Shown here piece by piece: positions 1,657 to 35,243 of a stretch of DNA of 44,335 bases. Source of the DNA: a virus; IMG/VR virus record IMGVR_UViG_3300037501_000085, one strand, 5' to 3'. The translations under genes and the position numbers were made by a program. The notes beneath the pieces are model-generated. The model had not been told where the DNA came from, searched no databases, and saw only the letters and a list, made by a program, of their open reading frames with translations. How positions within the stretch are numbered: position 1 is the first letter of the stretch; each line of letters opens with the position of its first letter.

Positions 1657-3991
1657 TCAAGATTTTTTTCTCTTCCTCGGTCGGGGTATCTCGGCTGAGA
1701 GCCTGCCGGATCTCTGGACCGGTCCAGACGTCGTGCTCCTCGGCCCATAGGATGAGCAGGTCCGTATTTAGGGCCCTGTAGTTCTGTTGGCTCAGACCCC
1801 GAGGTCTCCTCCAACATCGCCTGGCCTGGGCTAGGGCCGTGAGGGCTCGACCGATTTCGGCGATGGTAGGGGCCGGCATCTTAGCGTGCAGGTCCCAGCA
1901 CTCCTGTAGCCCATAGGCCGTGACCCACAGCTGGCCGTCTTTCACCCTGATCAAGTAGTCTCGCCGGGCATCGACACGGCGGGGGTCTCGAAGGTAGGCC
2001 AGGGCCCAGGCGCAGATCGCAGATCGAGTCCCTGACCGAACGGTCAAGGACCGGGCTAGCCGCTGGTCCGGCTGGCCGATCAAGAATCGGCCCTGAGGGA
2101 CGCCAGGCCGATGCTCTCGGAGCCACAAGGCATGCCGGGCCAGGCGGTTCTGGGTCACGATGCTGGCCGCGTCCACGGTCCGGAGGTATTGGGCCGCAGA
2201 ATCGTCGGGGATCCGGACGTGGTAGAATCGGTCCGATATCGCATCGATGTCGTGCTCGGTAAGGTCCTGGGCCGTGTCCAGGATGGTCTCTCGGTTGGCC
2301 GTCAGTACGACGCGGACACAACCTAAGATCGTGTTATCGTGGGCATATTTCTTGGTGTAGGGCCGGGCGTGATCGGCGATCAGGGAACGGAGATCGGCCA
2401 TTTTGGCGTAGCCCCGCATGTCTCTGGGGATGTCCTCGTCACCCAAGATGAGCGGACATTCTACGATCTGGTCCGACCAAGCCCCCAGGACCTGGTGTAG
2501 GGCCGTGGGCTTATCCGATTGCCAGAGCCGAGCCACGGCCGCGCCGAAGAGGCTCTTGCCCGTCGCGGGAGGGCCCGTAAACAGCAGAGCGGCGGCGGTG
2601 CGATGGAGATCCATGACGTGGGCCAGCCAGGTCTCCACGGCCGGGAGATCCGGGCCACACAGGAGGGAGAGCCAGTTGGCCACCTCGGAATCGTAGGCCG
2701 GAGTGAGGGCTCGACGGGGGCAGGGGGCTAGACGGAGGGTCTTGGCCGGACCGGGGTCCCAGGAGGGGACGTCCAGGGTCAGATCGTAGATCACCCGCTG
2801 GATCCGGTCCCCGTAGTCTGAGACCAGCTGGGACAGTGTCTTTGGGACGAGTCCCTGAGGGGTGGCCCGGTGGATCTCCACCCCGTGCGATGAGGCCGGG
2901 GCCAGAAGGTCCCGGCCCGAGTCCTCCCGATCAACGATCGGGATGTAGCGACCCCCGACCCAGATCCAGAAGTGGCGGTCCTGCTGGAGGATCCAGGCCC
3001 GATCGGTCGGGGGGCGCTCAGTCGAGGTGTAGGGTGTCTCCCGATGGGGGGTGGACGTGACGGACCAGGCCGCCCGGAGGAGGGCCCTTTGGGCCAGGAG
3101 CTGGCCCTGGGCATCAGCGTGGGCCTCCTCCCGGATCCGCTCCTGGGCTCTCTCGATTTTGGCCTGGGTCTCCTCCAGGGTCGGAGCGCCCATCAGCTGG
3201 AGGGACTGGGCGAAATGTTGAGCCAGGGTCTGAGGCTCCGCATCGGGCCAGAGCTGGGCCAGATCAGAGCAGAGCTGGAACGTCAGAGTATCCCGCTCCC
3301 CCTCCTGGGCGTAGGCCTCGCCCCGGACCAGGGCCTGGAGTGCCTGACCGAGATGGGCCCGGTTGGGATCCCTAGCCCGCAGCCAGGTCCGGGACAGGCC
3401 CTGGAGCTGGCTCCGTGTGATCTTGCGCGCCTGGGTCGGAGCCGGGGGGAGGACCGGGGAGGACAGGAGGGCGTCCACGTCCAGGGGTTCGCCCGGGAGG
3501 ACTACGTAGGAGTGATCGGACAGACGATCGGTCATGGGCACGAAAGGCCCAAAAAAGAATCGGGACGAATCCTTGCACTGACTATCCGGGGGGCAGGGCC
3601 AACGACCCGCTAGAAGGGCCCAGAACATACGCCATTCTTGGGCCAGGACCGGACGGGTGAATGGCACGCACAGACGTAGGGACCAAGGTTTGGTCGTATG
3701 GCTCCAGGTCGTATAGAGGAGGGCAGCCTGGCCGGAGGAGGTCAGGGCCTGGACCAGGTCCTGGACCTCCTGGGCCGATACTCGGTCTAGATCGAGGACG
3801 CCGAAGTGGACCTGGATCACGTTACGCTGCTGCCGTCGGCCCGTAAATTCCGCTGGACTGAAGGCCGGGAGGGAGTCCTTTGGTCCGGGGTGGTATTGGT
3901 GAGGGCCCAGAGCTTGGACGAAACTCTCCCAGGTCAGATCGTGCAGGCTCGGGTAGGGATCTTTGGCGCCCTGGAATAGGGAGATCTTCAT
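1652..3991 (-). CDS. Primase-helicase (primase-polymerase-like N-terminal region plus D5/P4-type SF3 P-loop NTPase)
   Basis: Start placed at ATG 3989-3991 (MKISLFQG..., ATGA overlap with the upstream stop) rather than track start 4114. The N-terminal region has FGVLDLDRV, TTWSH and CKDSSRFFFGP. The C-terminal region has Walker A FTGPPATGKSL and Walker B-like PLILGDED. Confidence 0.75.
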   Translation of the reverse strand: MKISLFQGAKDPYPSLHDLTWESFVQALGPHQYHPGPKDSLPAFSPAEFTGRRQQRNVIQVHFGVLDLDRVSAQEVQDLVQALTSSGQAALLYTTWSHTTKPWSLRLCVPFTRPVLAQEWRMFWALLAGRWPCPPDSQCKDSSRFFFGPFVPMTDRLSDHSYVVLPGEPLDVDALLSSPVLPPAPTQARKITRSQLQGLSRTWLRARDPNRAHLGQALQALVRGEAYAQEGERDTLTFQLCSDLAQLWPDAEPQTLAQHFAQSLQLMGAPTLEETQAKIERAQERIREEAHADAQGQLLAQRALLRAAWSVTSTPHRETPYTSTERPPTDRAWILQQDRHFWIWVGGRYIPIVDREDSGRDLLAPASSHGVEIHRATPQGLVPKTLSQLVSDYGDRIQRVIYDLTLDVPSWDPGPAKTLRLAPCPRRALTPAYDSEVANWLSLLCGPDLPAVETWLAHVMDLHRTAAALLFTGPPATGKSLFGAAVARLWQSDKPTALHQVLGAWSDQIVECPLILGDEDIPRDMRGYAKMADLRSLIADHARPYTKKYAHDNTILGCVRVVLTANRETILDTAQDLTEHDIDAISDRFYHVRIPDDSAAQYLRTVDAASIVTQNRLARHALWLREHRPGVPQGRFLIGQPDQRLARSLTVRSGTRSAICAWALAYLRDPRRVDARRDYLIRVKDGQLWVTAYGLQECWDLHAKMPAPTIAEIGRALTALAQARRCWRRPRGLSQQNYRALNTDLLILWAEEHDVWTGPEIRQALSRDTPTEEEKKILS
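1657..1732. repeat. Direct repeat, copy 2 (76 nt); the authentic 3' end of the primase-helicase gene
   Basis: See copy 1. It encodes ...HDVWTGPEIRQALSRDTPTEEEKKILS* in the primase frame. Confidence 0.95.
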
Positions 3992-11705: not shown

Positions 11706-12320
11706 CTAGGACGCTATCACGGACTGGAGCTGACCGCCCACCCCGACCGTCAGACTGTCGCCGTATCCCAGATCGTCTGAGGTCTCCTGAGGACTGGTCT
11801 GGGAGGCGAACGTGAACGAGTCCGCTGGGGCGGCCTGACTCCAGAGCAGGAACAGCCGCACGCCCGCGGCCTTGGTCGTGACCAGATTCTGCCAGAGCAC
11901 GAGGATCGCCCAGGTCACGGCCCCGTCCACCTGGATAGTCACGGCCGCGGGATAGTGCTCGGTCAGGGACAGGGCGAATCCTGAGGGCAGGCTCAGGACC
12001 CCGACCGCGATCAGGTCCTCGGTCGTACCGCTGGAGCGGTTGATCCGGATCTGGGCTCGGAGGGCGATTCGGTAGTCCTCGTCCGATAGATCCCCTCGGC
12101 CTCGGCCTACGATCCGTCCCAGCATGTCCAGGGCCGCGTCCTCGGCCACATCTAGGGCTCGGAGGGTGATCACCTCCCAGGTGGCATCCTCCAGTTCCTG
12201 AATCCGACGTAGGTACGATCGGAGTAGAGCCTCGAGCTTGGATTTGCCTCGAAATTGCTCCAGGAGCCTGGACAGGCCCTGGTCTACGTGCGTGGTTTTG
12301 GGCTGGGGGTTCCAGGTCAT
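11706..12320 (-). CDS. Baseplate/tail-fibre-proximal protein (DUF2612-like, P2 gpI / Mu gp48 position)
   Basis: Start moved to ATG 12320 (ATGA overlap). The pattern LSRLLEQFRGKSKLEALLRSYLRRIQELED…LDMLGRIVG…YRIALRAQIRINRSSGT and its position directly before the fibre gene support the call. Confidence 0.55.
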   Translation of the reverse strand: MTWNPQPKTTHVDQGLSRLLEQFRGKSKLEALLRSYLRRIQELEDATWEVITLRALDVAEDAALDMLGRIVGRGRGDLSDEDYRIALRAQIRINRSSGTTEDLIAVGVLSLPSGFALSLTEHYPAAVTIQVDGAVTWAILVLWQNLVTTKAAGVRLFLLWSQAAPADSFTFASQTSPQETSDDLGYGDSLTVGVGGQLQSVIAS

Positions 12321-13591
12321 GACCCCTCGAGAGCCCGGGCGCAGCACCAGGAGGCCGCGCTAGCGCACCAGGGGACTTCGTCCGAGGCCTTTGGCCCGAG
12401 GACTCGACGGCCGCCCTGCTGACCCAGGCCGGCCCTCGGCGGGCCTCCTCGGCGGGCCCCGGCATGGTACTCCTGGATTCGGGGATGGGAGCCTGGGCCT
12501 CGGACCTCTCGGATTCCTCGGGCCAGCTCGGCCCGGGCTGCGGCCAGGGCCCGGAGACCTAGATCATCCGGGTAGACGATCCACCCGAGGACTCGACCTA
12601 GATCTAGGGGCGCTCGAGTCCAGGTATCCCCCTCGTTGCCTCCGATTGTGATCAGGCCCTCGGGATAGGTTCCCTCCACTCTCTCTACGTGGCCCGATCC
12701 GCCCGTGCGAGGGTCCTGGCCCAGGCGCCCGGATATGGCCAGGTCCCCGGGCTGGGGGACGTGCGCGTCCCGGTCCCGCCACGTGCCCAGGGCTCGGGCG
12801 TCGGACACCAGTTCTGCGACCGAGCACCGATAACCATGCGGGGCTCGGCTCGGAGGAGGCTCGGACCGGGCCAGGGACGCGGCGATGAATTCGGCCAGGC
12901 CCTCCCCGAGGGCTCGGACGGGAGCCAGGACCTCCGAGGTCAGGCTCAGGCCCTCGGCCCGGCCAAAGACCGAGGCCAAGAGCCTGGGCATGACCTCCCT
13001 CTGCTGCTGGATGTGGGCCTCCCGATCTATGTCCTGGCTGGGGAAAAGCTCCACATGTAAGCCGGGGGCCTGGACGGGCTGACCCACCTCCAGGACGTGG
13101 CCTAGAGCGGCCTCTAGGACATGGCGTGTGGACGTAGCTCGGCCGGGCTGGCCGACCGGGATCCGCTCCGTGTAGCCCATGCTCGTGGCCGTCATGACCA
13201 GGCGGACTGAGCCCTCCCGGGCCCGGCCGAGCAATCGGCGCCAGACGTCTATATGGACGGGATTGGGTGGGATGCTCGAATGCGTGCCATCGAATACGGC
13301 CACGCCCCGGATCAGGTCCTCGGGCACGGCCCGGCCGATTAGGGCCGCCCGGACGGACTGGCACCCGGCCGAGTACCCGATCAGGAGCAGGCCCGCGTCC
13401 GGAGGGGCTCCGGCCAGGACCCGAGCGGCCTGGACGTCTCCCTGGGACACTCCCAGGGGAGCCTGGTCCGAGGCCACGATCCCCCAGCCGGGCAGAGCCT
13501 CCTGGAGAGCCCGGTCCATGTGCGAGCCCACGAGCCAGCACAGGGCTAGGCCCCTAGGGCGTAGGGAGGGATAACGCTGGACGAGTCTCAC
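12317..13591 (-). CDS. Two-domain cell-envelope hydrolase: GYSxG esterase-like N-terminal domain plus NlpC/P60-CHAP-like peptidase, with an extra orphan half-domain at the C-terminus
   Basis: GTG start in a GTGA overlap. LLLIGYSAGCQSV is a GxSxG nucleophile elbow of the cutinase/LysB-like GYSxG type. The core YRCSVAELV…PQPGDLAISG…GSGHVERV…ITIGGNEGD has Cys before His. The C-terminal REVRGPGSHPRIQEY…DEVPWCASAASWC resembles the first half of a TIGR02594-type domain and ends 10 aa later. Confidence 0.65.
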   Translation of the reverse strand: MRLVQRYPSLRPRGLALCWLVGSHMDRALQEALPGWGIVASDQAPLGVSQGDVQAARVLAGAPPDAGLLLIGYSAGCQSVRAALIGRAVPEDLIRGVAVFDGTHSSIPPNPVHIDVWRRLLGRAREGSVRLVMTATSMGYTERIPVGQPGRATSTRHVLEAALGHVLEVGQPVQAPGLHVELFPSQDIDREAHIQQQREVMPRLLASVFGRAEGLSLTSEVLAPVRALGEGLAEFIAASLARSEPPPSRAPHGYRCSVAELVSDARALGTWRDRDAHVPQPGDLAISGRLGQDPRTGGSGHVERVEGTYPEGLITIGGNEGDTWTRAPLDLGRVLGWIVYPDDLGLRALAAARAELARGIREVRGPGSHPRIQEYHAGARRGGPPRAGLGQQGGRRVLGPKASDEVPWCASAASWCCARALEGS

Positions 13592-13794
13592 GGCTCAGGC
13601 GGAGGGTCCGTATCGTGGAGGGCCACGCGCTCTCGGTCGATCCGAGCATCGATGGAGTCCCAGGCGGCCAGGTCCGGGGGCATGGGGCCGAGCTGATGCC
13701 GGCCCCAGAAATCGATCAGGAGCGGGGCCACGCCCGGGATCCGGGGGATGACCTCCCGGGCGAAGGCTACGAGGAGACCGAGGGCCTCAGACAT
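13588..13794 (-). CDS. Small protein with hydrophobic N-terminus (68 aa), possibly membrane-associated
   Basis: MSEALGLLVAFAREVIPRIPGVAPLLIDFW…; coupled to both neighbours. Confidence 0.4.
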   Translation of the reverse strand: MSEALGLLVAFAREVIPRIPGVAPLLIDFWGRHQLGPMPPDLAAWDSIDARIDRERVALHDTDPPPEP

Positions 13795-14080
13795 GGCCAC
13801 ACTTCTCGGGCTCAAATGCACACCAGGCCCGGCGGACGGCCTCCAGGGCCTCTCGGACGGGCCGGTAGCGCTCCCTCACCCCGTGGATACACGGATCGAT
13901 CTGAGGCCCAGGGAGGGAGAGGCAACGCCTTTGGTCCGCCTCGTATGTCTCCCTGAGGAGGGCATCCGCAAGGCTCACGGCCTGGAGCCCGGTTCGGGCG
14001 AGGTCCAGAGCGGTCTGGATCTCGTGCTGGGCCGGCGCGCAGCCTGCCAGGATGAGGGCGAGGGGGAGGAGGGACCTCAT
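13787..14080 (-). CDS. Lipoprotein (97 aa; o-spanin-like or other envelope lipoprotein)
   Basis: MRSLLPLALILAGC is a signal peptide plus lipobox (L-A-G-C). The mature part carries four further Cys residues. Confidence 0.65.
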   Translation of the reverse strand: MRSLLPLALILAGCAPAQHEIQTALDLARTGLQAVSLADALLRETYEADQRRCLSLPGPQIDPCIHGVRERYRPVREALEAVRRAWCAFEPEKCGHV

Positions 14081-14364
14081 TTCGGGGCCCCGTCCCGGTA
14101 GGAATTGATCCCCATCGCTCCCAGGGCAGCCGTGGCCGAGGTCAGGCCCAGGGCCTCCCAGCTCGCGTCCGTGGTCAGGCCCAGAGCTAGGGTCGGGAGG
14201 GTGGCCAGGATCAGGACGTAGGCCCGCTTGGCCCAGGGATTGGTGAGCCGCTCGCCAATCCAGGGTGCGCGCTTGGATAGCGCGACTACGGCGAATAGGA
14301 GTCCGGCCGCGACCAGACGGCCCTCGCCGGACGTGAGTAGAGTCAGGATCTCGGCCTCGGTCAT
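14077..14364 (-). CDS. Small multi-pass membrane protein (95 aa), holin-like
   Basis: Hydrophobic segments LVAAGLLFAVVAL, AYVLILATLPTLALGL and ALGLTSATAALGAMGI. ATGA overlaps on both sides. Confidence 0.5.
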   Translation of the reverse strand: MTEAEILTLLTSGEGRLVAAGLLFAVVALSKRAPWIGERLTNPWAKRAYVLILATLPTLALGLTTDASWEALGLTSATAALGAMGINSYRDGAPK

Positions 14365-15587
14365 GTCCCGGAGGTTAGCAGAGTGATGTCACCCACGGCC
14401 AGAGTGACCTGTTCTCGGGGACCGATGACCAGATCGGTGTTGGCCGCTCCGTAAGGTGAGCCCGTATACTGGATATTGATGTAGGAGACGGCGACTACAC
14501 CAGCCAGGTCCATGAGGGTCTCTACATACTCGCTCCACCGGACCTTACCCCCTGGCTTCTGGACGGCCAGCACGCGATCGGCTAGAGCCTGTTTCGCGGC
14601 CGTGTCGCCCACGTACGTGGCCGCGTCGATCGTCAGGATCGTGTCCATCTTGATGGACCGGATCGTGGGCCGGGTGAAGGGGACGATGTGTGAGTCTCCG
14701 ACCGCATCCATGGCCGTCCCAGAGATCGAGCCGTAGGCCTGGATCCCGGCGGGTTTGGAATCCCAGATCACCTGGGCGATCACGGAGTTGGGCGTGGCCG
14801 CCGCGACTCCGTCATAGACCAGACACTCCAGGCTGTGCGGGGGGAGGCCCAGGACCGGATCGGTGAAATCCTGAACGTTCTCGAATACGGTGCACTCAAG
14901 GACGGGCTTGGTGCCCTCGTATGTCAGGGCCAGGAGGTCCGCCCGGATCGCGTCCACGGTCCCGGCCCCGGTCGCGCGTAGCTCCTCTTCCCGCCGCTCC
15001 CGGAGCTGGGCGTCCGTGTCCTCATCCGTCCCAGGGATCGCGTCCTGGGTGTTGGTGACAGAATTCCACCCCACGACCGGGGTGGCGATCACGGTTAGGG
15101 TCCCGGCATTAGCCAGGAATCCGGAGCCCGCGGTCTCGGCCTCCATCGTGACCAGGACGTTGGCCGGGCTCCCTCCCGAATTGGTGACGTCCTCGGTCGT
15201 GACCCAGCGGTTGGTCGGTTGGCCCACGACGTGGGCGACCGAGCCGGCCGGTAGGGTGGTCGTGGCGTTCAGGTTGACGGTCGCTTTGCGCGAGCCTGCT
15301 AGCTGCCCCTTGGTCGCCGGGGCTCGGAGGGTCCCGGTGAGAGCGCTCAGGGCCTCCAGGAGGAACCCCTCGGCTGCGTCTGGATCGCATCCCTGCCAGG
15401 CGATCAGGAGGGTCTCCCAGGCTTCCCTCAGGTGAGAGGCGAAAATTCCGTTCAGTTGCCCGATCGGGCCGTCTGGGTTTGTGTTCAGGAGGGGATCAAT
15501 TTCCGCCCTTTGCTCCTGGCTCAGATCAGCCAGGAGGTCCTCCACGGTCGGGATCTGGAGTCCGGCGGACGTGACATAGACGGCCAT
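14361..15587 (-). CDS. Baseplate J-like protein (P2 gpJ / Mu gp47 family)
   Basis: Start moved to ATG 15587 (MAVYVTSAGLQIPTVEDLLADL…). Its size (408 aa), sequence pattern and position after the gp25-like gene fit the family. Confidence 0.7.
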   Translation of the reverse strand: MAVYVTSAGLQIPTVEDLLADLSQEQRAEIDPLLNTNPDGPIGQLNGIFASHLREAWETLLIAWQGCDPDAAEGFLLEALSALTGTLRAPATKGQLAGSRKATVNLNATTTLPAGSVAHVVGQPTNRWVTTEDVTNSGGSPANVLVTMEAETAGSGFLANAGTLTVIATPVVGWNSVTNTQDAIPGTDEDTDAQLRERREEELRATGAGTVDAIRADLLALTYEGTKPVLECTVFENVQDFTDPVLGLPPHSLECLVYDGVAAATPNSVIAQVIWDSKPAGIQAYGSISGTAMDAVGDSHIVPFTRPTIRSIKMDTILTIDAATYVGDTAAKQALADRVLAVQKPGGKVRWSEYVETLMDLAGVVAVSYINIQYTGSPYGAANTDLVIGPREQVTLAVGDITLLTSGT

Positions 15588-15594
15588 GGGCACC

Positions 15595-16053
15595 TCAGGG
15601 CAAAATGAAGGGCTCGTCCTGAGCCACGATGATCGCACCGTTTTCTAGCTGGGCCTCGAAATCCATACTCAGGATCCGGGCCGGACGATCGAAATCCAGA
15701 GTGAAGGCCCGGACCGAGGCCACACCAGGGGTATCCAGGAGGGCCTGGCGGAACGTGTTCGTGATCAGGACAAGATCTGGATTTTTCACGAGAAATCGGC
15801 TGTAGTATGGCATGCCTAGCCGTTGATCCAGGAACCACTCCCCCAGGAAAAATCGGAACCTGGTCCGGATCCGCTGGGCTACGGCCTCGGCCCCGCGGAT
15901 GATCTGGGGCTGGGCCGGCAGGTCCCCGGTCAGGGAGTCCAGGCCCAGCTCGGCATACTGGAGGGGCTGAACGAATCCTACCTCGCCGGGCTGGGCCTCA
16001 GAGGGGATGACAGCCGGGGCCGTCGGGGCGAGGGTATAGGACCAGGTAATCAT
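15595..16053 (-). CDS. Baseplate wedge protein, gp25/GPW-like
   Basis: RIRTRFRFFLGEWFLDQRLGMPYY is the motif typical of gp25-like baseplate proteins. Confidence 0.65.
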   Translation of the reverse strand: MITWSYTLAPTAPAVIPSEAQPGEVGFVQPLQYAELGLDSLTGDLPAQPQIIRGAEAVAQRIRTRFRFFLGEWFLDQRLGMPYYSRFLVKNPDLVLITNTFRQALLDTPGVASVRAFTLDFDRPARILSMDFEAQLENGAIIVAQDEPFILP

Positions 16054-16481
16054 GCCTCGTTCGCGTCCTGGTCCAGGGCCCGGACTCGGATCGTGGGGGC
16101 CGAGATCCAGCCCCCGCCCCGGGTCAAGGTGAAGGAAAATCCGTTGGTTATTGCGGTCTTAGCCCCGGTATAGGGGTACAGGAACCCCTCCAGATCCGTG
16201 TAGGCCACTTCCCGGATCTGGGCTTGATCGATCTGGATCTCGAGCAGGCCCAGGCCTGGGGCCAGGTCCGTGACCTGGCACGTGATCGAATCGTAGGGTC
16301 CGAGCTGGCTCCCTGCTGTGGGGGAGATCCCAGACACGACCGGGGCCGTGGCGTCCTTCCCTGCACCTCCCAGGATCCCCTGAGAGAATATAAATACCCA
16401 GGAATTTTGTGCTTCGCAGGACTCGATCGGGCCCTGCGAAGCAGTGAAAGACCAAGAATCCTGAGCCTGAAACTCGGCCAT
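16050..16481 (-). CDS. Hypothetical baseplate-module protein (143 aa)
   Basis: ATGA overlap with the downstream gene. DATAPVVSGISPTAGSQLGPYDSITCQVTD suggests an Ig-like fold. No family assigned. Confidence 0.5.
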   Translation of the reverse strand: MAEFQAQDSWSFTASQGPIESCEAQNSWVFIFSQGILGGAGKDATAPVVSGISPTAGSQLGPYDSITCQVTDLAPGLGLLEIQIDQAQIREVAYTDLEGFLYPYTGAKTAITNGFSFTLTRGGGWISAPTIRVRALDQDANEA

Positions 16482-16483
16482 GA

Positions 16484-17440
16484 TCAGACTGAGGGGACGG
16501 TCCCGTCCCAGGGTAGGCTAATGTCAGCCATCACGATCCTGTCTCGGGTGGTGGAGACGGTCAGGGTATCACCTGTAGTCCTGGACGTGCCGGTCCATCG
16601 GAGCAGGCTCGATTGGCCCTTGAACCCGGGATTGGCGAGGGCCGATCGCCTCGCGTAAATGGCCGGAAATCTTTCATCTTTCGCGTTTATGGGATTGGTC
16701 GGTAGCGCATTGGGTGAGACATCTCCGGATCCCGTGGCGTAACGACACGTGGGCCAATGCACATACGAGGATCCAGGAGAGGCGGAAATGATCTGACTCC
16801 AGGCTGCTCGGGAGGTAGCCGCGCCCGCCTCATTTTGTAGCGCTGCGAGACTGAGTTGAGACTGTCCGGAAACCCCAACCAGGAATATATAGATATCCGC
16901 GTCCGTGGCTGTCGTATCCAGTAGCGGATCCAGGATCAGGACAGCTTGAGGGGCCCCCCCGCCTGTCGGGAATGCTACGGCCCACCAGCCATACGGGCTT
17001 GCCCCGTCCGAGGCACAATTCCATCGGTAGGTTCCGTCGGCCGCGAAAAGACTGGAGAATGTGGGCGATGCATCCGTGCCCGCTCCGATCGCGATCAGTT
17101 CGTCGGTGGCACTAGGGGTCTGCGTCGTTCCAGGAGACCCTCCTGTAAATCCTGCGGTTCGTGACCGCTTGATGCGCCAGACCAGATTCGTGGTGCCCCT
17201 TTGACAGGTAAATTCTTGCGATCCTGCTCCGGCCGGGCTCCGGATCCGGAACCAGGCGGAGTTATTGGCCATTCCGCCGGCCCCGGATCCAGCGGAGGAG
17301 ATTTGATCTCCTGAGGCGTTGTACGTGGTCCCGTCTGAGGAACTCTGGACCGTCCAACCCTGCAATTTCAATAGGGTTTTTAGGTTGAAGATGGCCTCGG
17401 CTCCAGTGGCCGGCGTCGATTTGTTGAACGAAAACGCCAT
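16484..17440 (-). CDS. Hypothetical Ser/Thr/Gly/Ala-rich protein (318 aa) in the baseplate module
   Basis: Tightly packed between the spike gene and the 143-aa ORF. The nucleotide composition is visibly less GC-rich than its neighbours. No family recognised. Confidence 0.55.
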   Translation of the reverse strand: MAFSFNKSTPATGAEAIFNLKTLLKLQGWTVQSSSDGTTYNASGDQISSAGSGAGGMANNSAWFRIRSPAGAGSQEFTCQRGTTNLVWRIKRSRTAGFTGGSPGTTQTPSATDELIAIGAGTDASPTFSSLFAADGTYRWNCASDGASPYGWWAVAFPTGGGAPQAVLILDPLLDTTATDADIYIFLVGVSGQSQLSLAALQNEAGAATSRAAWSQIISASPGSSYVHWPTCRYATGSGDVSPNALPTNPINAKDERFPAIYARRSALANPGFKGQSSLLRWTGTSRTTGDTLTVSTTRDRIVMADISLPWDGTVPSV

Positions 17441-32479: not shown

Positions 32480-33095
32480 CTGGTTCCCAGGCCTGCGAGA
32501 ATTCCCGATCGGCGAAGAGGTCAGCCAGGCCTGTGATCTGCTTCAGTCTCCGGACCTCATCCTCACACATGCCTAATTCCTCTTGGATCTTGTCGTCTCT
32601 CCATCCTGCCCGGTAGAGCATCCGGACGACATCTCCCCTGGCCTCCACCCGATGGTCCCCCCGAGCCCGGTTGTGTTCTACTGTGGCAGCGATTCTAGCT
32701 GCCTTGTCCGAGCGCTCGGCTCGGATCTGGGTGACGGGTAGGTGGCCCAAGGTGCTCTGCCGGATTCTAGGATGCTCCTTCCCTACCCGATGTCGGTGGA
32801 ATCCGTCGACCACTACCACCCCTTGATCGTCTTGATGGGTGACAATGGGCATGGTGTAGCCATTTGCCTCTACTGAATGGGCCAGGAGCTTCATTTCAGG
32901 GGGCGCGACCGTATTGGGGTTGTAGTCATTGCCCCTCACCTCCTCTGCTCGGACCCACCGAACGAAGTCTACGGGGTGATCTCGGAGGGGGGAAATCTGG
33001 TGGAGTGCTTCTCGGATCTCGTTCAAGGCGTCAATTCGATCCTCTTCCGGGAGAACCAGAAGGATTTGGATCAATTTCTCTAGAGAGGCTCTCAT
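32469..33095 (-). CDS. ParB/Srx-like nuclease-domain protein (IbrB-like)
   Basis: Start placed at ATG 33095 (ATGA overlap with the GNAT stop). Contains …PIVTHQDDQGVVVVDGFHRHRVG… (ParB N-domain DGxHR motif) and a C-terminal helical segment. Confidence 0.7.
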   Translation of the reverse strand: MRASLEKLIQILLVLPEEDRIDALNEIREALHQISPLRDHPVDFVRWVRAEEVRGNDYNPNTVAPPEMKLLAHSVEANGYTMPIVTHQDDQGVVVVDGFHRHRVGKEHPRIRQSTLGHLPVTQIRAERSDKAARIAATVEHNRARGDHRVEARGDVVRMLYRAGWRDDKIQEELGMCEDEVRRLKQITGLADLFADREFSQAWEPDGG

Positions 33096-33460
33096 CGGGG
33101 ATCTCTCCGGAGCCATACCCCCCCACGGCCGGCCTTCCAGCGCACAAATCCAGCAAGCTTATGGGCTCTCATGGAGGCCGCACAGCCATCGGGAATGAAG
33201 GCTACGAACGTCTTATGTGGGTGGGCTGCATAATAAGCCTGAACCAGACCCTTGGCCCGATAAGCAGGGAGCACGAAAATCGGTCCCAGGCGCCACCCAG
33301 ACTGTGTCTCGTGAGGGGTGACGAAGCCCACGATCTGCCCCTCGTATCGTAGGGGCTCGCGTCTCGTACTAGAGATGATCACCCGAGGACCTATCAAGGG
33401 ATCCTTTCGGGCCTCCTGGATGATGGTCATGGGGATCCCTCGTTCATCTACAGATTCCAT
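33092..33460 (-). CDS. Small GNAT-family acetyltransferase-like protein
   Basis: WRLGPIFVLPAYRAKGLVQAYY fits the GNAT acetyl-CoA-binding motif A context. It is 112-122 aa depending on the start (33430 or 33460). Confidence 0.5.
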   Translation of the reverse strand: MESVDERGIPMTIIQEARKDPLIGPRVIISSTRREPLRYEGQIVGFVTPHETQSGWRLGPIFVLPAYRAKGLVQAYYAAHPHKTFVAFIPDGCAASMRAHKLAGFVRWKAGRGGVWLRRDPR

Positions 33461-34683
33461 AGTGCCCTCCTCTTCTTCATAATCTTGCGGTAGCGCTCAA
33501 ATGACGTCTCTGTACTTCTCTGTTGGGAGAACGAAAGACCTCGACACATCCGGTCATTTTTTAGCAAGACCTTAGCCACCCGACGCCAGGTTGGGGCCTG
33601 TCGTTTGGCCTCCACGGAATGAGGGGCCTCGTCCTCGATCTCCCGACCGCGGTGATTTCTCCACCAGGCTCGAAAGACCGCGATCTTATTCTCATAATGC
33701 TCCCGTTCATGGGCCGGGAGAGAGTCCAGAAGGAATCTAACGTAGCTCTCCCAGGAGGGGTGAGAAGAGGGCAGGTTGACTCGGCCATCTCCCAGGACGT
33801 TACCCCTCTGTCCAGCATAGATGGATCCGAAGTTAGCTCCGCTCACCCGAGCCACTACACGATTCCAGGCCTCTGGCTCAATTACATGCCACATGGCTAG
33901 GCTTCTTCTTTGGTCGTCTCCATAGGGCTGGCAAATTCGTTGCTGGTGAATGGACAGGCCTGCCTTGTACATGAGGTCATAGAGCTGATTATAAGGCAGG
34001 CCGGTCTTGCCGACGTAGGTCCAAATGTCTTCCGTCCTCCAATCGTAGATGGGATAGACATTGAACAGGCTCCCTCCCTTCCAGGCCGTCCAAGGACGGC
34101 CCTCGAGTCGACTCTTGCGCCGCTTGACGATTGCCCTCCAGCGATTGAGACTCTCATCTGTCCGGATGGCCACGAAACAGGCCGTGGACTTGTCCCCTCC
34201 GTACCAATGACCAAATTGCTCCACGAATTCTTCGAATTCCTGGGCCCCTCCGGACCAGGGGGGGCGATAGAAGGGATACCTGGACTCGTCTGTGACAGCC
34301 TGGGCCGGTGGCTCTCGGACCCATCTCCCCTTCGCCCGGGGGTCCCAACACACCCAGTAAGGCTCCTTCATACTGACAGCGTTCCGCAGGCGGAGGGGGA
34401 GGGCCACCCAATGGGGATCGATCACATCCTGATAGAGGGCGAACATTTCTCGTACGTGTGTGATCGTGGCCGAGTATTGGGCCTCTAAATCCACGTACAG
34501 GACACCGATAGTTCGGCGCCTTCGTCGGGCCTCCTGGCAGACCAGGTGCATCATGACACTGGAGTCCTTGCCAGATGGCCCAGATAGGTAGATGCGCTCA
34601 AAGGAGTCGAAGGCCCATAGGATCCTGTCTCGGGCCGCGTCCAGGACATTGATTTCCAGATATCGCTTGGCTAGGTCAGCCAC
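33448..34683 (-). CDS. PAPS-reductase-family (PP-loop ATPase) protein with DUF3440-like C-terminal region (IbrA-like)
   Basis: PP-loop YLSGPSGKDSSVMMHL. The C-terminal …APTWRRVAKVLLKNDRMCRGLSFSQ resembles the recalled conserved end of IbrA/DUF3440 proteins. Confidence 0.75.
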   Translation of the reverse strand: MADLAKRYLEINVLDAARDRILWAFDSFERIYLSGPSGKDSSVMMHLVCQEARRRRRTIGVLYVDLEAQYSATITHVREMFALYQDVIDPHWVALPLRLRNAVSMKEPYWVCWDPRAKGRWVREPPAQAVTDESRYPFYRPPWSGGAQEFEEFVEQFGHWYGGDKSTACFVAIRTDESLNRWRAIVKRRKSRLEGRPWTAWKGGSLFNVYPIYDWRTEDIWTYVGKTGLPYNQLYDLMYKAGLSIHQQRICQPYGDDQRRSLAMWHVIEPEAWNRVVARVSGANFGSIYAGQRGNVLGDGRVNLPSSHPSWESYVRFLLDSLPAHEREHYENKIAVFRAWWRNHRGREIEDEAPHSVEAKRQAPTWRRVAKVLLKNDRMCRGLSFSQQRSTETSFERYRKIMKKRRALWNL

Positions 34684-35243
34684 GCCTGAGCCTCCTTCTG
34701 GGAAAGTATTTTCAGGGAAGGCCCGGCCCCGAGCAAATGACGGGATCCCTCCCGATATACTTCATAGATTCGGCCATGTCGGAGTCGAAAGACGCGTTGT
34801 CCGTTCACGACCACGAAGCCCAATCGTCTGGGCGTACCCAGGCCCGAAACCTCGGCGACCCAAGGACGATCGGCCGGGTCATCGGGGACTCGAAGGATCG
34901 TCACCGGGTCTTGATGACCCTCGACCAAGGCCAAAGCTTCTAGAGCGTCCAGCGGCTTCTGTTTCCCTCGGTCCAACAGGAAAAATTCCCGAGACACATA
35001 GCGCTTAGAAGGTTTTCCTCGACATCGACTGACCTCATATAGATGACCATCCCGGAGAGGGAAGCAGGCCACTACCCCATACAAATTCCCACTCCAGGCC
35101 TTTCGAGCCTCGGCCCAATCGTTCAGAGGAGAGACGAATTCTCTCTGGAGACCGTAGCGTTCGTCCGGGCCGTCGATTCGGGCGACCCAGGGCCTGGGCG
35201 GGGGACCCCCATGGAAGTGTCCATCTACGCTGATCCTAAGCAT
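34671..35243 (-). CDS. Hypothetical protein (190 aa)
   Basis: ATG 35243 lies 2 nt after the methyltransferase stop (alternative start 35258). MLRISVDGHFHGGPPPRPWVARIDGPDERYGLQREFVSPL… No family recognised. Confidence 0.5.
   Translation of the reverse strand: MLRISVDGHFHGGPPPRPWVARIDGPDERYGLQREFVSPLNDWAEARKAWSGNLYGVVACFPLRDGHLYEVSRCRGKPSKRYVSREFFLLDRGKQKPLDALEALALVEGHQDPVTILRVPDDPADRPWVAEVSGLGTPRRLGFVVVNGQRVFRLRHGRIYEVYREGSRHLLGAGPSLKILSQKEAQAWLT

Follow-up and report, generated by a model that had tools for sequence, protein, structure and literature searches.

Why should four genes of an envelope-active kind stand between two baseplate genes that are normally neighbours, and why should the largest of them appear to end in half of a domain? 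Both questions arise at positions 12317-14364 of the IMG/VR virus record IMGVR_UViG_3300037501_000085, an entire JGI contig of 44,335 bp which is called the window below. The virus is a myovirus with E217/PB1/Pam3-like virion genes, and its proteins are less than 40% identical to those of any cultured phage. Here four minus-strand open reading frames (ORFs) of 95, 97, 68 and 424 amino acids (aa) lie between the Baseplate_J and DUF2612 genes. In the 424-aa product, a hydrolase, an earlier note made from the sequence alone had seen a cutinase- or LysB-like N-terminal domain, a complete Cys-then-His peptidase core and a C-terminal piece resembling only the first half of a second such domain. Comparison with homologues strongly supports the view that a circular permutation has taken place and that this "half-domain" belongs to the same TIGR02594/CHAP-type domain as the core, being its displaced half with the Cys helix. 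We also consider it probable that the four genes form a complete lysis cassette which has been transplanted between J and DUF2612.

Evidence for a circularly permuted peptidase domain

The motifs on which the earlier reading relied (GYSAGC, GSGHVERV, GGNEGD and VPWCASAASWC) are all present in the translation. A homologue search with the hydrolase found 73 proteins, most of which share its segment order, and the canonical TIGR02594/CHAP order, with "PRIxEY...PWCA" upstream of "HGxRxSVAEL...GHVERV...GGNE", was met in P0029, P0042, P0045, P0048, P0052, P0053 and P0068. One of these, P0053, carries a PG_binding_1 domain where the window hydrolase has its interdomain linker.

The permutation was tested by BLAST of canonical relatives against the C-terminal domain of the window hydrolase (C-domain), doubled or in its native form. 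With the doubled domain the alignment was one contiguous high-scoring segment pair (HSP) spanning the junction (P0068, 4e-33; P0053, 2e-30), whereas the native domain gave two HSPs in swapped order (for P0068, the His half at 3e-19 and the Cys half at 4e-12). The circular permutation, which the earlier note had offered beside a truncated duplication, is borne out by this comparison; the duplication is not. With profiles, the de-permuted sequence aligned in a single stretch to positions 10-130 of 132 of TIGR02594, and its match to CHAP, which had covered positions 38-77 (E = 0.0033), lengthened to 4-77 of 81 (E = 2.9e-5); the His half taken separately matches positions 38-77 of the CHAP profile and 75-130 of TIGR02594.

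Column statistics were taken over 143 family members, 48 permuted and 95 canonical. H301 is conserved in all 48 permuted and 92 of the 95 canonical members and N319 in 48/48 and 93/95, and the WC[AS] motif is found after the His segment in 47/48 permuted proteins and before it in 89/95 canonical ones. C256, in the motif YRCSV, has a different distribution: it is Cys in 42 of the 48 permuted members and in just 5 of the 95 canonical ones, 77 of which have A, V, I or L there. On these column counts we take C256 not to be the nucleophile, and the complete Cys-then-His core that the earlier note had placed here could not be upheld; the peptidase active site is likely to consist of C409, H301 and N319. 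The Cys, the His and the polar third residue of CHAP/TIGR02594 enzymes are all found, but His301 comes before Cys409, so that the linear Cys-before-His order is absent. Columns W163, C164, A165 and S166 of the C-domain alignment (A3), equal to W408, C409, A410 and S411 of the full protein, are invariant. Cys256 was apparently acquired together with the permutation, and a disulfide or a redox role may be named as possibilities for it.

An AlphaFold2 model of the hydrolase has a predicted local distance difference test score (pLDDT) of 90.3, and the C-domain modelled alone is one compact unit (pLDDT 91.3, predicted template modelling score, pTM, 0.89). In the model helix 409-422 begins with Cys409 and strand 301-309 with His301, a predicted placement that is the papain-like signature. 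Foldseek matched CHAP, TIGR02594 and PlyB-type lysins over about 70-94 columns. A fold search with the isolated C-domain gave half-domain CHAP alignments only (E = 0.08), which neither prove nor disprove the topology; such matches are to be expected, because Foldseek aligns sequentially and the domain is permuted.

We consider it very improbable that the C-terminal piece is what survives, without function, of a second, truncated CHAP/TIGR02594 domain, and that C256 is the nucleophile: C256 does lie two residues ahead of helix 258-268 and is Cys in most permuted members, but six of the 48 manage without it and canonical relatives mostly have A, V, I or L there, and the C-terminal segment is strongly conserved up to its invariant WCAS, homologous to the canonical upstream Cys segment (E down to 4e-12) and modelled confidently within one compact domain, and no member was found to carry Cys segments both upstream and downstream.

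A tandem Cys-His-Cys intermediate was not found among 211 family members. P0009 and P0010 had been flagged for an extra upstream xWC[AS] motif; P0009, whose sequence alone of the two was inspected, was rejected as an intermediate, its "AWCA" being a chance occurrence in an unrelated N-terminal domain. In P0009 and P0018 the permuted CHAP domain is kept and an unrelated N-terminal domain replaces the alpha/beta-hydrolase module, an instance of domain shuffling. The permuted members are 53% alike among themselves and 40% alike to the canonical ones and are nested inside a canonical cluster, which suggests one or a few permutation events. Both forms occur in the Polyangiaceae metagenome-assembled genome (MAG) Bin8.16, which has a permuted (L004) and a canonical-order (L005) copy of the two-domain hydrolase on different contigs. 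A further observation concerns the loop before the Cys helix (window 12400-12470, residues ~375-397; ARRGGxPxAGMPGHE), which faintly resembles the His-strand motif ARAGGDPxxGGxGHVE; the resemblance is not significant (hmmsearch E 0.2-1) and may have arisen by chance or be left over from the rearrangement.

Relation to other permuted and canonical peptidases

With the TIGR02594/CHAP (PF05257) peptidoglycan amidases and endopeptidases the window domain shares the Cys helix (PRIxEY...DExPWCA), the GD strand, the His of GHVxxV and the Asn of GGN(E/Q), and canonical-order members of the same two-domain family stand at about 40% identity to it. It differs in having the His/Asn half first and the Cys helix last, and in a loop before the Cys helix that is longer by some 15 residues.

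Rearrangement of this type has precedents, as the Cys helix was moved to the C-terminus by circular permutation in the LRAT and YaeF/YiiX families of NlpC/P60 (PMC3142127, PMC10318531). The window domain has in common with these permuted NlpC/P60 proteins (LRAT-like and YaeF/YiiX C92) the superfamily, the type of rearrangement and the C-terminal Cys helix. However, a Pfam scan at E <= 1 returned CHAP only for the C-domain, neither LRAT (PF04970) nor Peptidase_C92 (PF05708), and no LRAT, HRASLS or YiiX structure was among its 50 best PDB fold matches. LRAT and C92 proteins are linked to lipid or acyl-transfer chemistry, while the window domain is nested in peptidoglycan-lytic TIGR02594/CHAP lysins. 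This nesting, together with canonical sisters of the same architecture, suggests that the permutation is separate from that of LRAT/C92 and more recent. We found no permuted CHAP endolysin described in a search of the literature.

The N-terminal domain as a serine-hydrolase module of lysins

Residues 1-210 are modelled as an alpha/beta sandwich with pLDDT above 90, in which the nucleophile elbow is made of strand 68-73, Ser74 and helix 76-85 (motif G72-Y-S74-A-G76) and Asp101 follows directly on strand 94-100. Foldseek put thioesterases of polyketide synthases and non-ribosomal peptide synthetases at the top, with further matches to PA1622, lipases, polyhydroxybutyrate depolymerase and chlorophyllase (E 8.5e-4 to 1e-2, probability 0.9-0.98; PDB entries 5d3z, 7al5, 8w2d, 5v41, 3d0k and 8fjd); the low template modelling (TM) scores are explained by the query, a two-domain model. 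A fold search of BFVD matched phage "esterases". Hydrolase folds were found in this way for both domains, thioesterases and esterases for the first and CHAP lysins for the second, as the earlier note had anticipated.

In 17 diverse members (alignment A4) S74, G76, R81, D101, T155 and H193 are invariant. The S, G, D and H remain so in 45 more distant members (A5), and the Ser-Asp-His order of alpha/beta-hydrolase triads is kept in both alignments. The spacing of 27 residues from Ser to Asp is one that we take to be fitting for thioesterase-type alpha/beta-hydrolases, for instance SrfTE and DEBS TE. By sequence the domain belongs to no family in Pfam, PHROG, NCBIfam or PDB: Abhydrolase_6 is matched at 0.0022 in one of the 17 members and Abhydrolase_1 at 0.0014 in two of the 45, the domain profile searched against PDB gave sub-threshold matches only (nucleotide-binding domains of ATP-binding cassette transporters at E = 0.1, esterases at 0.36-1), and phmmer with the whole hydrolase found no match in PDB. 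The likeness to cutinases and LysB proposed in the earlier note did not hold, Pfam Cutinase reaching E = 0.1. Judging from the model, the N-terminal domain (N-domain) has an alpha/beta-hydrolase fold and its family is uncharacterised.

By an exhaustive profile search the domain was detected in 1,388 or more clusters formed at 50% identity, 604 of them with E <= 1e-10; in nearly all, the protein is 380-530 aa long and has the domain in N-terminal position. The partners of the domain were surveyed in 45 members whose C-terminus is other than the CHAP type of the window; in Pfam terms they are PG_binding_1 (16), CHAP (14), PG_binding_3 (12), Amidase_2 (6), Glucosaminidase (4), Peptidase_M15_4 (3), SpoIID (1) and GDSL (1). 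From this survey the N-domain appears to be a recurrent module of modular cell-wall lysins, and its pairing with peptidases, with amidases and with glycosidases suggests that its own activity complements each of theirs. We favour an esterase acting on an ester of the envelope, the substrate being conjectural.

Mycobacteriophage LysB shares with it the Ser-Asp-His alpha/beta-hydrolase fold, the GxSxG elbow and, sometimes, a PG_binding_1 domain, and the modular LysA endolysins are similarly assembled from interchangeable catalytic modules (PMC3314691, PMC7022511). Unlike LysB, the window domain gives no significant Cutinase match, has its acid in the thioesterase-like place and is fused to a peptidase in place of being a separate gene; the LysB structure 3HC7 was not among the top fold matches of the hydrolase. 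A Gram-negative-type host, not one of the mycolata, is indicated by the lipobox lipoprotein of the cassette, the E217/PB1-like virion genes and the relatives in Polyangiaceae MAGs. It is tempting to go further and to see in the N-domain an esterase for the outer-membrane step, cleaving an envelope lipid or lipoprotein of such a host as a fused analogue of LysB, and in the permuted CHAP clade an active enzyme that underwent permutation recently and traceably, its canonical sisters standing at about 40% identity; we regard this as doubtful, though if true, a large lysin family seen only in metagenomes would partly or wholly replace spanins.

A probable lysis cassette in the J|DUF2612 junction

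The coupling of the four genes, claimed in the earlier note, is confirmed: all five junctions from J through DUF2612 are start/stop overlaps (Table 1), and the guanine-plus-cytosine (GC) content at third codon positions (GC3) of 0.79-0.82 in all four ORFs is at the real-gene level for this contig of 66% GC. The cassette and its surroundings were scanned for promoters, terminators, tRNAs and Rfam elements and none was found. Together with the overlapping junctions, this lack of internal promoter- or terminator-like sites indicates that the cassette is read within the late baseplate operon.

The junction was compared with those of two metagenomic relatives having the most similar baseplates, L032 and L040, and of the cultured phage phiEcoM-GJ1. 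The hub, 209-aa protein, W, J and DUF2612 genes of both relatives are homologous to those of the window (J being 44-45% identical), as is the fibre N-terminus in L040, and in both of them the DUF2612 orthologue immediately follows J, so the adjacency of these two genes, assumed in the earlier note, is found in practice. phiEcoM-GJ1 has the order W, J, a 213-aa structural protein, fibres, holin and endolysin, where the protein following J has the size of the DUF2612 product. The GC content of the cassette is 70.1%, against 64.8-65.3% in the flanks and the structural module. From gene order and composition it is most likely that the four genes reached the J|DUF2612 junction together, by acquisition or by relocation.

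In the relatives examined the hydrolase gene stands behind the fibres, where the structural operon ends, or in the company of early genes, never within the baseplate genes. Post-fibre loci with the hydrolase accompanied by membrane, lipoprotein and small ORFs were found in L001, L003, L004, L007, L033, L034 and L037, and in L040 the post-fibre genes are membrane proteins and an Amidase_2/PG_binding_1 endolysin; the window has only oppositely oriented genes at this spot. No second lysin came to light in the window, whose proteins matched no further muralytic family of Pfam. The late operon of phiEcoM-GJ1 has the same gene set and direction, with lysis genes co-oriented with the tail genes, a layout that L040 follows exactly; in the window the lysis genes are placed two genes upstream and split J from DUF2612.

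The 95-aa product is multi-pass, as had been noted, its three hydrophobic segments (peaks 2.18, 2.07 and 1.44) giving a hydropathy comparable to lambda S105, which was run as a control; it has a short charged tail (RDGAPK), is encoded three genes upstream of the lysin and is a candidate holin. The LAGC lipobox of the 97-aa protein was likewise found at its N-terminus. This lipoprotein, for which a database search returned only itself, is homologous to the C-terminal halves of ORFs adjacent to the hydrolase in L004 (3e-9) and L001 (6e-7), and the 95-aa protein takes the position of the N-terminal multi-transmembrane half of such ORFs in L001, L003, L004, L007 and L033. As the pair is a single ORF in relatives, the 95-aa and 97-aa genes of the window appear to be its split version. 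The fused ORFs (L001 9129-9698; L003 8807-9490; L004 3917-4576; L007 6351-6929; L033 6051-6644) are laid out as transmembrane segments, an internal lipobox and a Cys-containing helical domain, and in L001, L003, L004 and L033 they are preceded by a coiled-coil protein with a hydrophobic "...GG" tail that is absent from the window. A match of the lipoprotein to LprI (lysozyme-inhibitor; E = 0.044) was rejected, being reproduced by none of four relatives.

The hydrophobic N-terminus ascribed to the 68-aa protein shrank on inspection to about 10 residues, which is not a convincing transmembrane domain (TMD), and there is no coiled coil. The ORF would be of 77 aa if begun at an upstream GTG. ORFs of 58-70 aa stand directly upstream of the hydrolase in L001, L003, L033 and L037, with no significant sequence similarity to the 68-aa protein.

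We propose the following order of events. The 95-aa protein with three TMDs would act as the holin and let the 424-aa endolysin reach the periplasm; residues 1-19 of the hydrolase are two confident beta-strands in the model, which argues that it has no signal peptide and would for that reason need a holin. The permuted TIGR02594/CHAP-type Cys peptidase or amidase would then, by homology, cut peptidoglycan peptides, and the Ser74-Asp101-His193 domain would serve as a second catalytic module, presumably on an ester-linked component of the envelope. The LAGC lipoprotein and the 68-aa protein, as conserved accessory envelope proteins, may have a late-lysis or outer-membrane role. Expression of the cassette would be achieved by translational coupling with the structural genes.

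Several points weigh against this interpretation. For the peptidase, the CHAP (PF05257) score stays under the cut-off of 26 bits in the full protein (15.8), the native C-domain (18.3) and even the de-permuted one (24.9), and TIGR02594 gives 27.9-28.8 bits where the curated cut-off is 70.55. No characterised enzyme is significantly similar in sequence to the N-domain, which makes the substrate a guess. The three small proteins fall into no family, whether of holins, spanins or any other kind, the 95-aa one having no counterpart in Pfam, PHROG or NCBIfam. A canonical i-spanin/spanin pair is not present either: of a two-component system the lipoprotein is there, but the type-II coiled-coil partner is not, the 68-aa protein offering no convincing TMD for this place. 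The named relatives are Polyangiaceae MAG contigs only. Finally, a place in the baseplate operon is also what a virion-associated enzyme would show.

This last point leads to the alternative that the hydrolase is a virion lysin which opens the envelope at infection, delivered by the baseplate, with the small proteins aiding its assembly or delivery. CHAP domains are common in virion-associated lysins, the cassette is translationally coupled to baseplate genes on both sides, and among PDB structures the C-domain is closest in fold to the CHAP domain found in the baseplate hub protein of phi812 (9eum). That match, however, is weak at E = 0.08 and owed to the CHAP fold in general, and the hydrolase consists of two enzyme domains and a linker, with no structural or adaptor domain. 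Its partners, a multi-transmembrane protein and a lipoprotein with an export signal, are not virion parts, and the PG_binding domains of family members are typical of endolysins. In the relatives, moreover, the gene lies outside the baseplate module, and the window would otherwise be left without any endolysin that we could find, whereas L040 has a post-fibre one. Between the two roles suggested in the earlier note, the synteny of relatives, the PG-binding partners and the absence of another lysin from the window favour lysis over entry, which we hold to be unlikely.

Slightly less likely still is that the cassette is a moron for modification of the host envelope or superinfection exclusion, with the hydrolase as an auxiliary or competition enzyme. 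Its deviant GC content would agree with this, and a lipoprotein next to a small membrane protein is a common pattern of exclusion genes. TIGR02594-type domains also occur among type VI secretion system effectors (PMC13055248, PMC13340143). Against a moron, the cassette has neither promoter nor terminator to itself and is expressed as part of the late structural operon, its arrangement and its position in relatives fit lysis cassettes, and the window showed no other lysin.

Database representation and features of the window

DNA and protein searches of 50,697 GenBank phage records gave nothing for the locus or the hydrolase. In a genome scan with a narrower alignment the matches were confined to two contigs of Polyangiaceae MAGs and a single Hyphomicrobiaceae fragment. 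Table 1 lists the features of the locus; a 413-aa fibre-like gene follows the DUF2612 gene downstream on the minus strand.

Table 1. Genes, domains and junctions of the locus, in order of transcription (positions in the window)
Feature	Position	Strand	Remarks
Baseplate_J-like wedge gene, upstream flank	14361..15638	-	PF04865 1.8e-13; phrog_6 5.8e-48
Junction J to 95-aa gene			ATGA
95-aa membrane protein, candidate holin	14077..14364	-	Hydrophobic segments 17-31, 50-64, 72-86; GC3 0.82
Junction 95-aa to 97-aa gene			ATGA
97-aa lipoprotein	13787..14080	-	Signal peptide, LAGC lipobox (Cys14); mature part helical, four further Cys
Junction 97-aa to 68-aa gene			ATGTCTGA (ATG at 13794)
68-aa protein	13588..13794	-	Short hydrophobic/amphipathic N-terminus; acidic, Pro-rich C-terminus
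Junction 68-aa to 424-aa gene			GTGA
Hydrolase residues 1-210, alpha/beta-hydrolase-fold domain	12962..13591	-	Predicted triad Ser74 (13370-13372), Asp101 (13289-13291), His193 (13013-13015)
Hydrolase residues 211-245, interdomain linker	12857..12961	-	Low confidence, pLDDT 47-60
Hydrolase residues 246-339, His/Asn beta-sheet half of TIGR02594/CHAP-type peptidase	12575..12856	-	His301 (12689-12691), Asn319 (12635-12637); C256 of YRCSV (12824-12826)
Hydrolase residues 340-424, putatively relocated N-terminal half of peptidase (leading helix, loop, Cys helix)	12320..12574	-	Cys409 (12365-12367)
Junction 424-aa to DUF2612 gene			ATGA
DUF2612 baseplate gene, downstream flank	11706..12320	-	PF11041 9.5e-9; true start ATG at 12320, overlapping hydrolase stop

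Some observations lie apart from the cassette. The same baseplate operon contains a second extra block (16050-17440, minus strand, GC 60.2% against ~65% for the operon), made of genes for 318 aa (16484-17440) and 143 aa (16050-16481) with no family matches; in L040 and L041 nothing separates the 209-aa spike-like gene from the W/gp25-like gene, whereas in the window the block lies between them. The region 32500-35200 of the window, flanked on one side by the structural operon with its terminase end and on the other by the following block of genes, is gene-poor, with a GC fraction of 0.556-0.589, no Rfam matches and only short repeats, and may be a regulatory or origin region. L004 also has, upstream of the cassette and next to tail-fibre-like genes, a gene (2612-3244) whose 210-aa product bears a GDSxxD motif at its start and is SGNH/GDSL-like.

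Implications

The enzyme kinds met here are known; what is new is the permuted CHAP/TIGR02594 lysin domain, the large unannotated serine-hydrolase lysin module and the unusual position of the cassette. An apparent orphan half-domain can be resolved, on our reading of the alignments, as a circular permutation inside the peptidoglycan-lytic CHAP/TIGR02594 lineage, and having canonical and permuted forms in one family offers a clean natural system for the study of how permutations are tolerated and fixed. It is also a warning to annotation pipelines, because the permuted form scores under the Pfam and TIGRFAM cut-offs. If a complete lysis cassette has indeed been spliced seamlessly between baseplate wedge genes, gene position would be a weak guide in telling a virion hydrolase from a lysis one. 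The analysis exposes, furthermore, a large lysin module with a conserved serine-hydrolase triad, which has no Pfam or PHROG match and no counterpart in GenBank phage records. The substrate of this N-domain could be a new target in diderm envelopes, and would be of interest for enzybiotic design.

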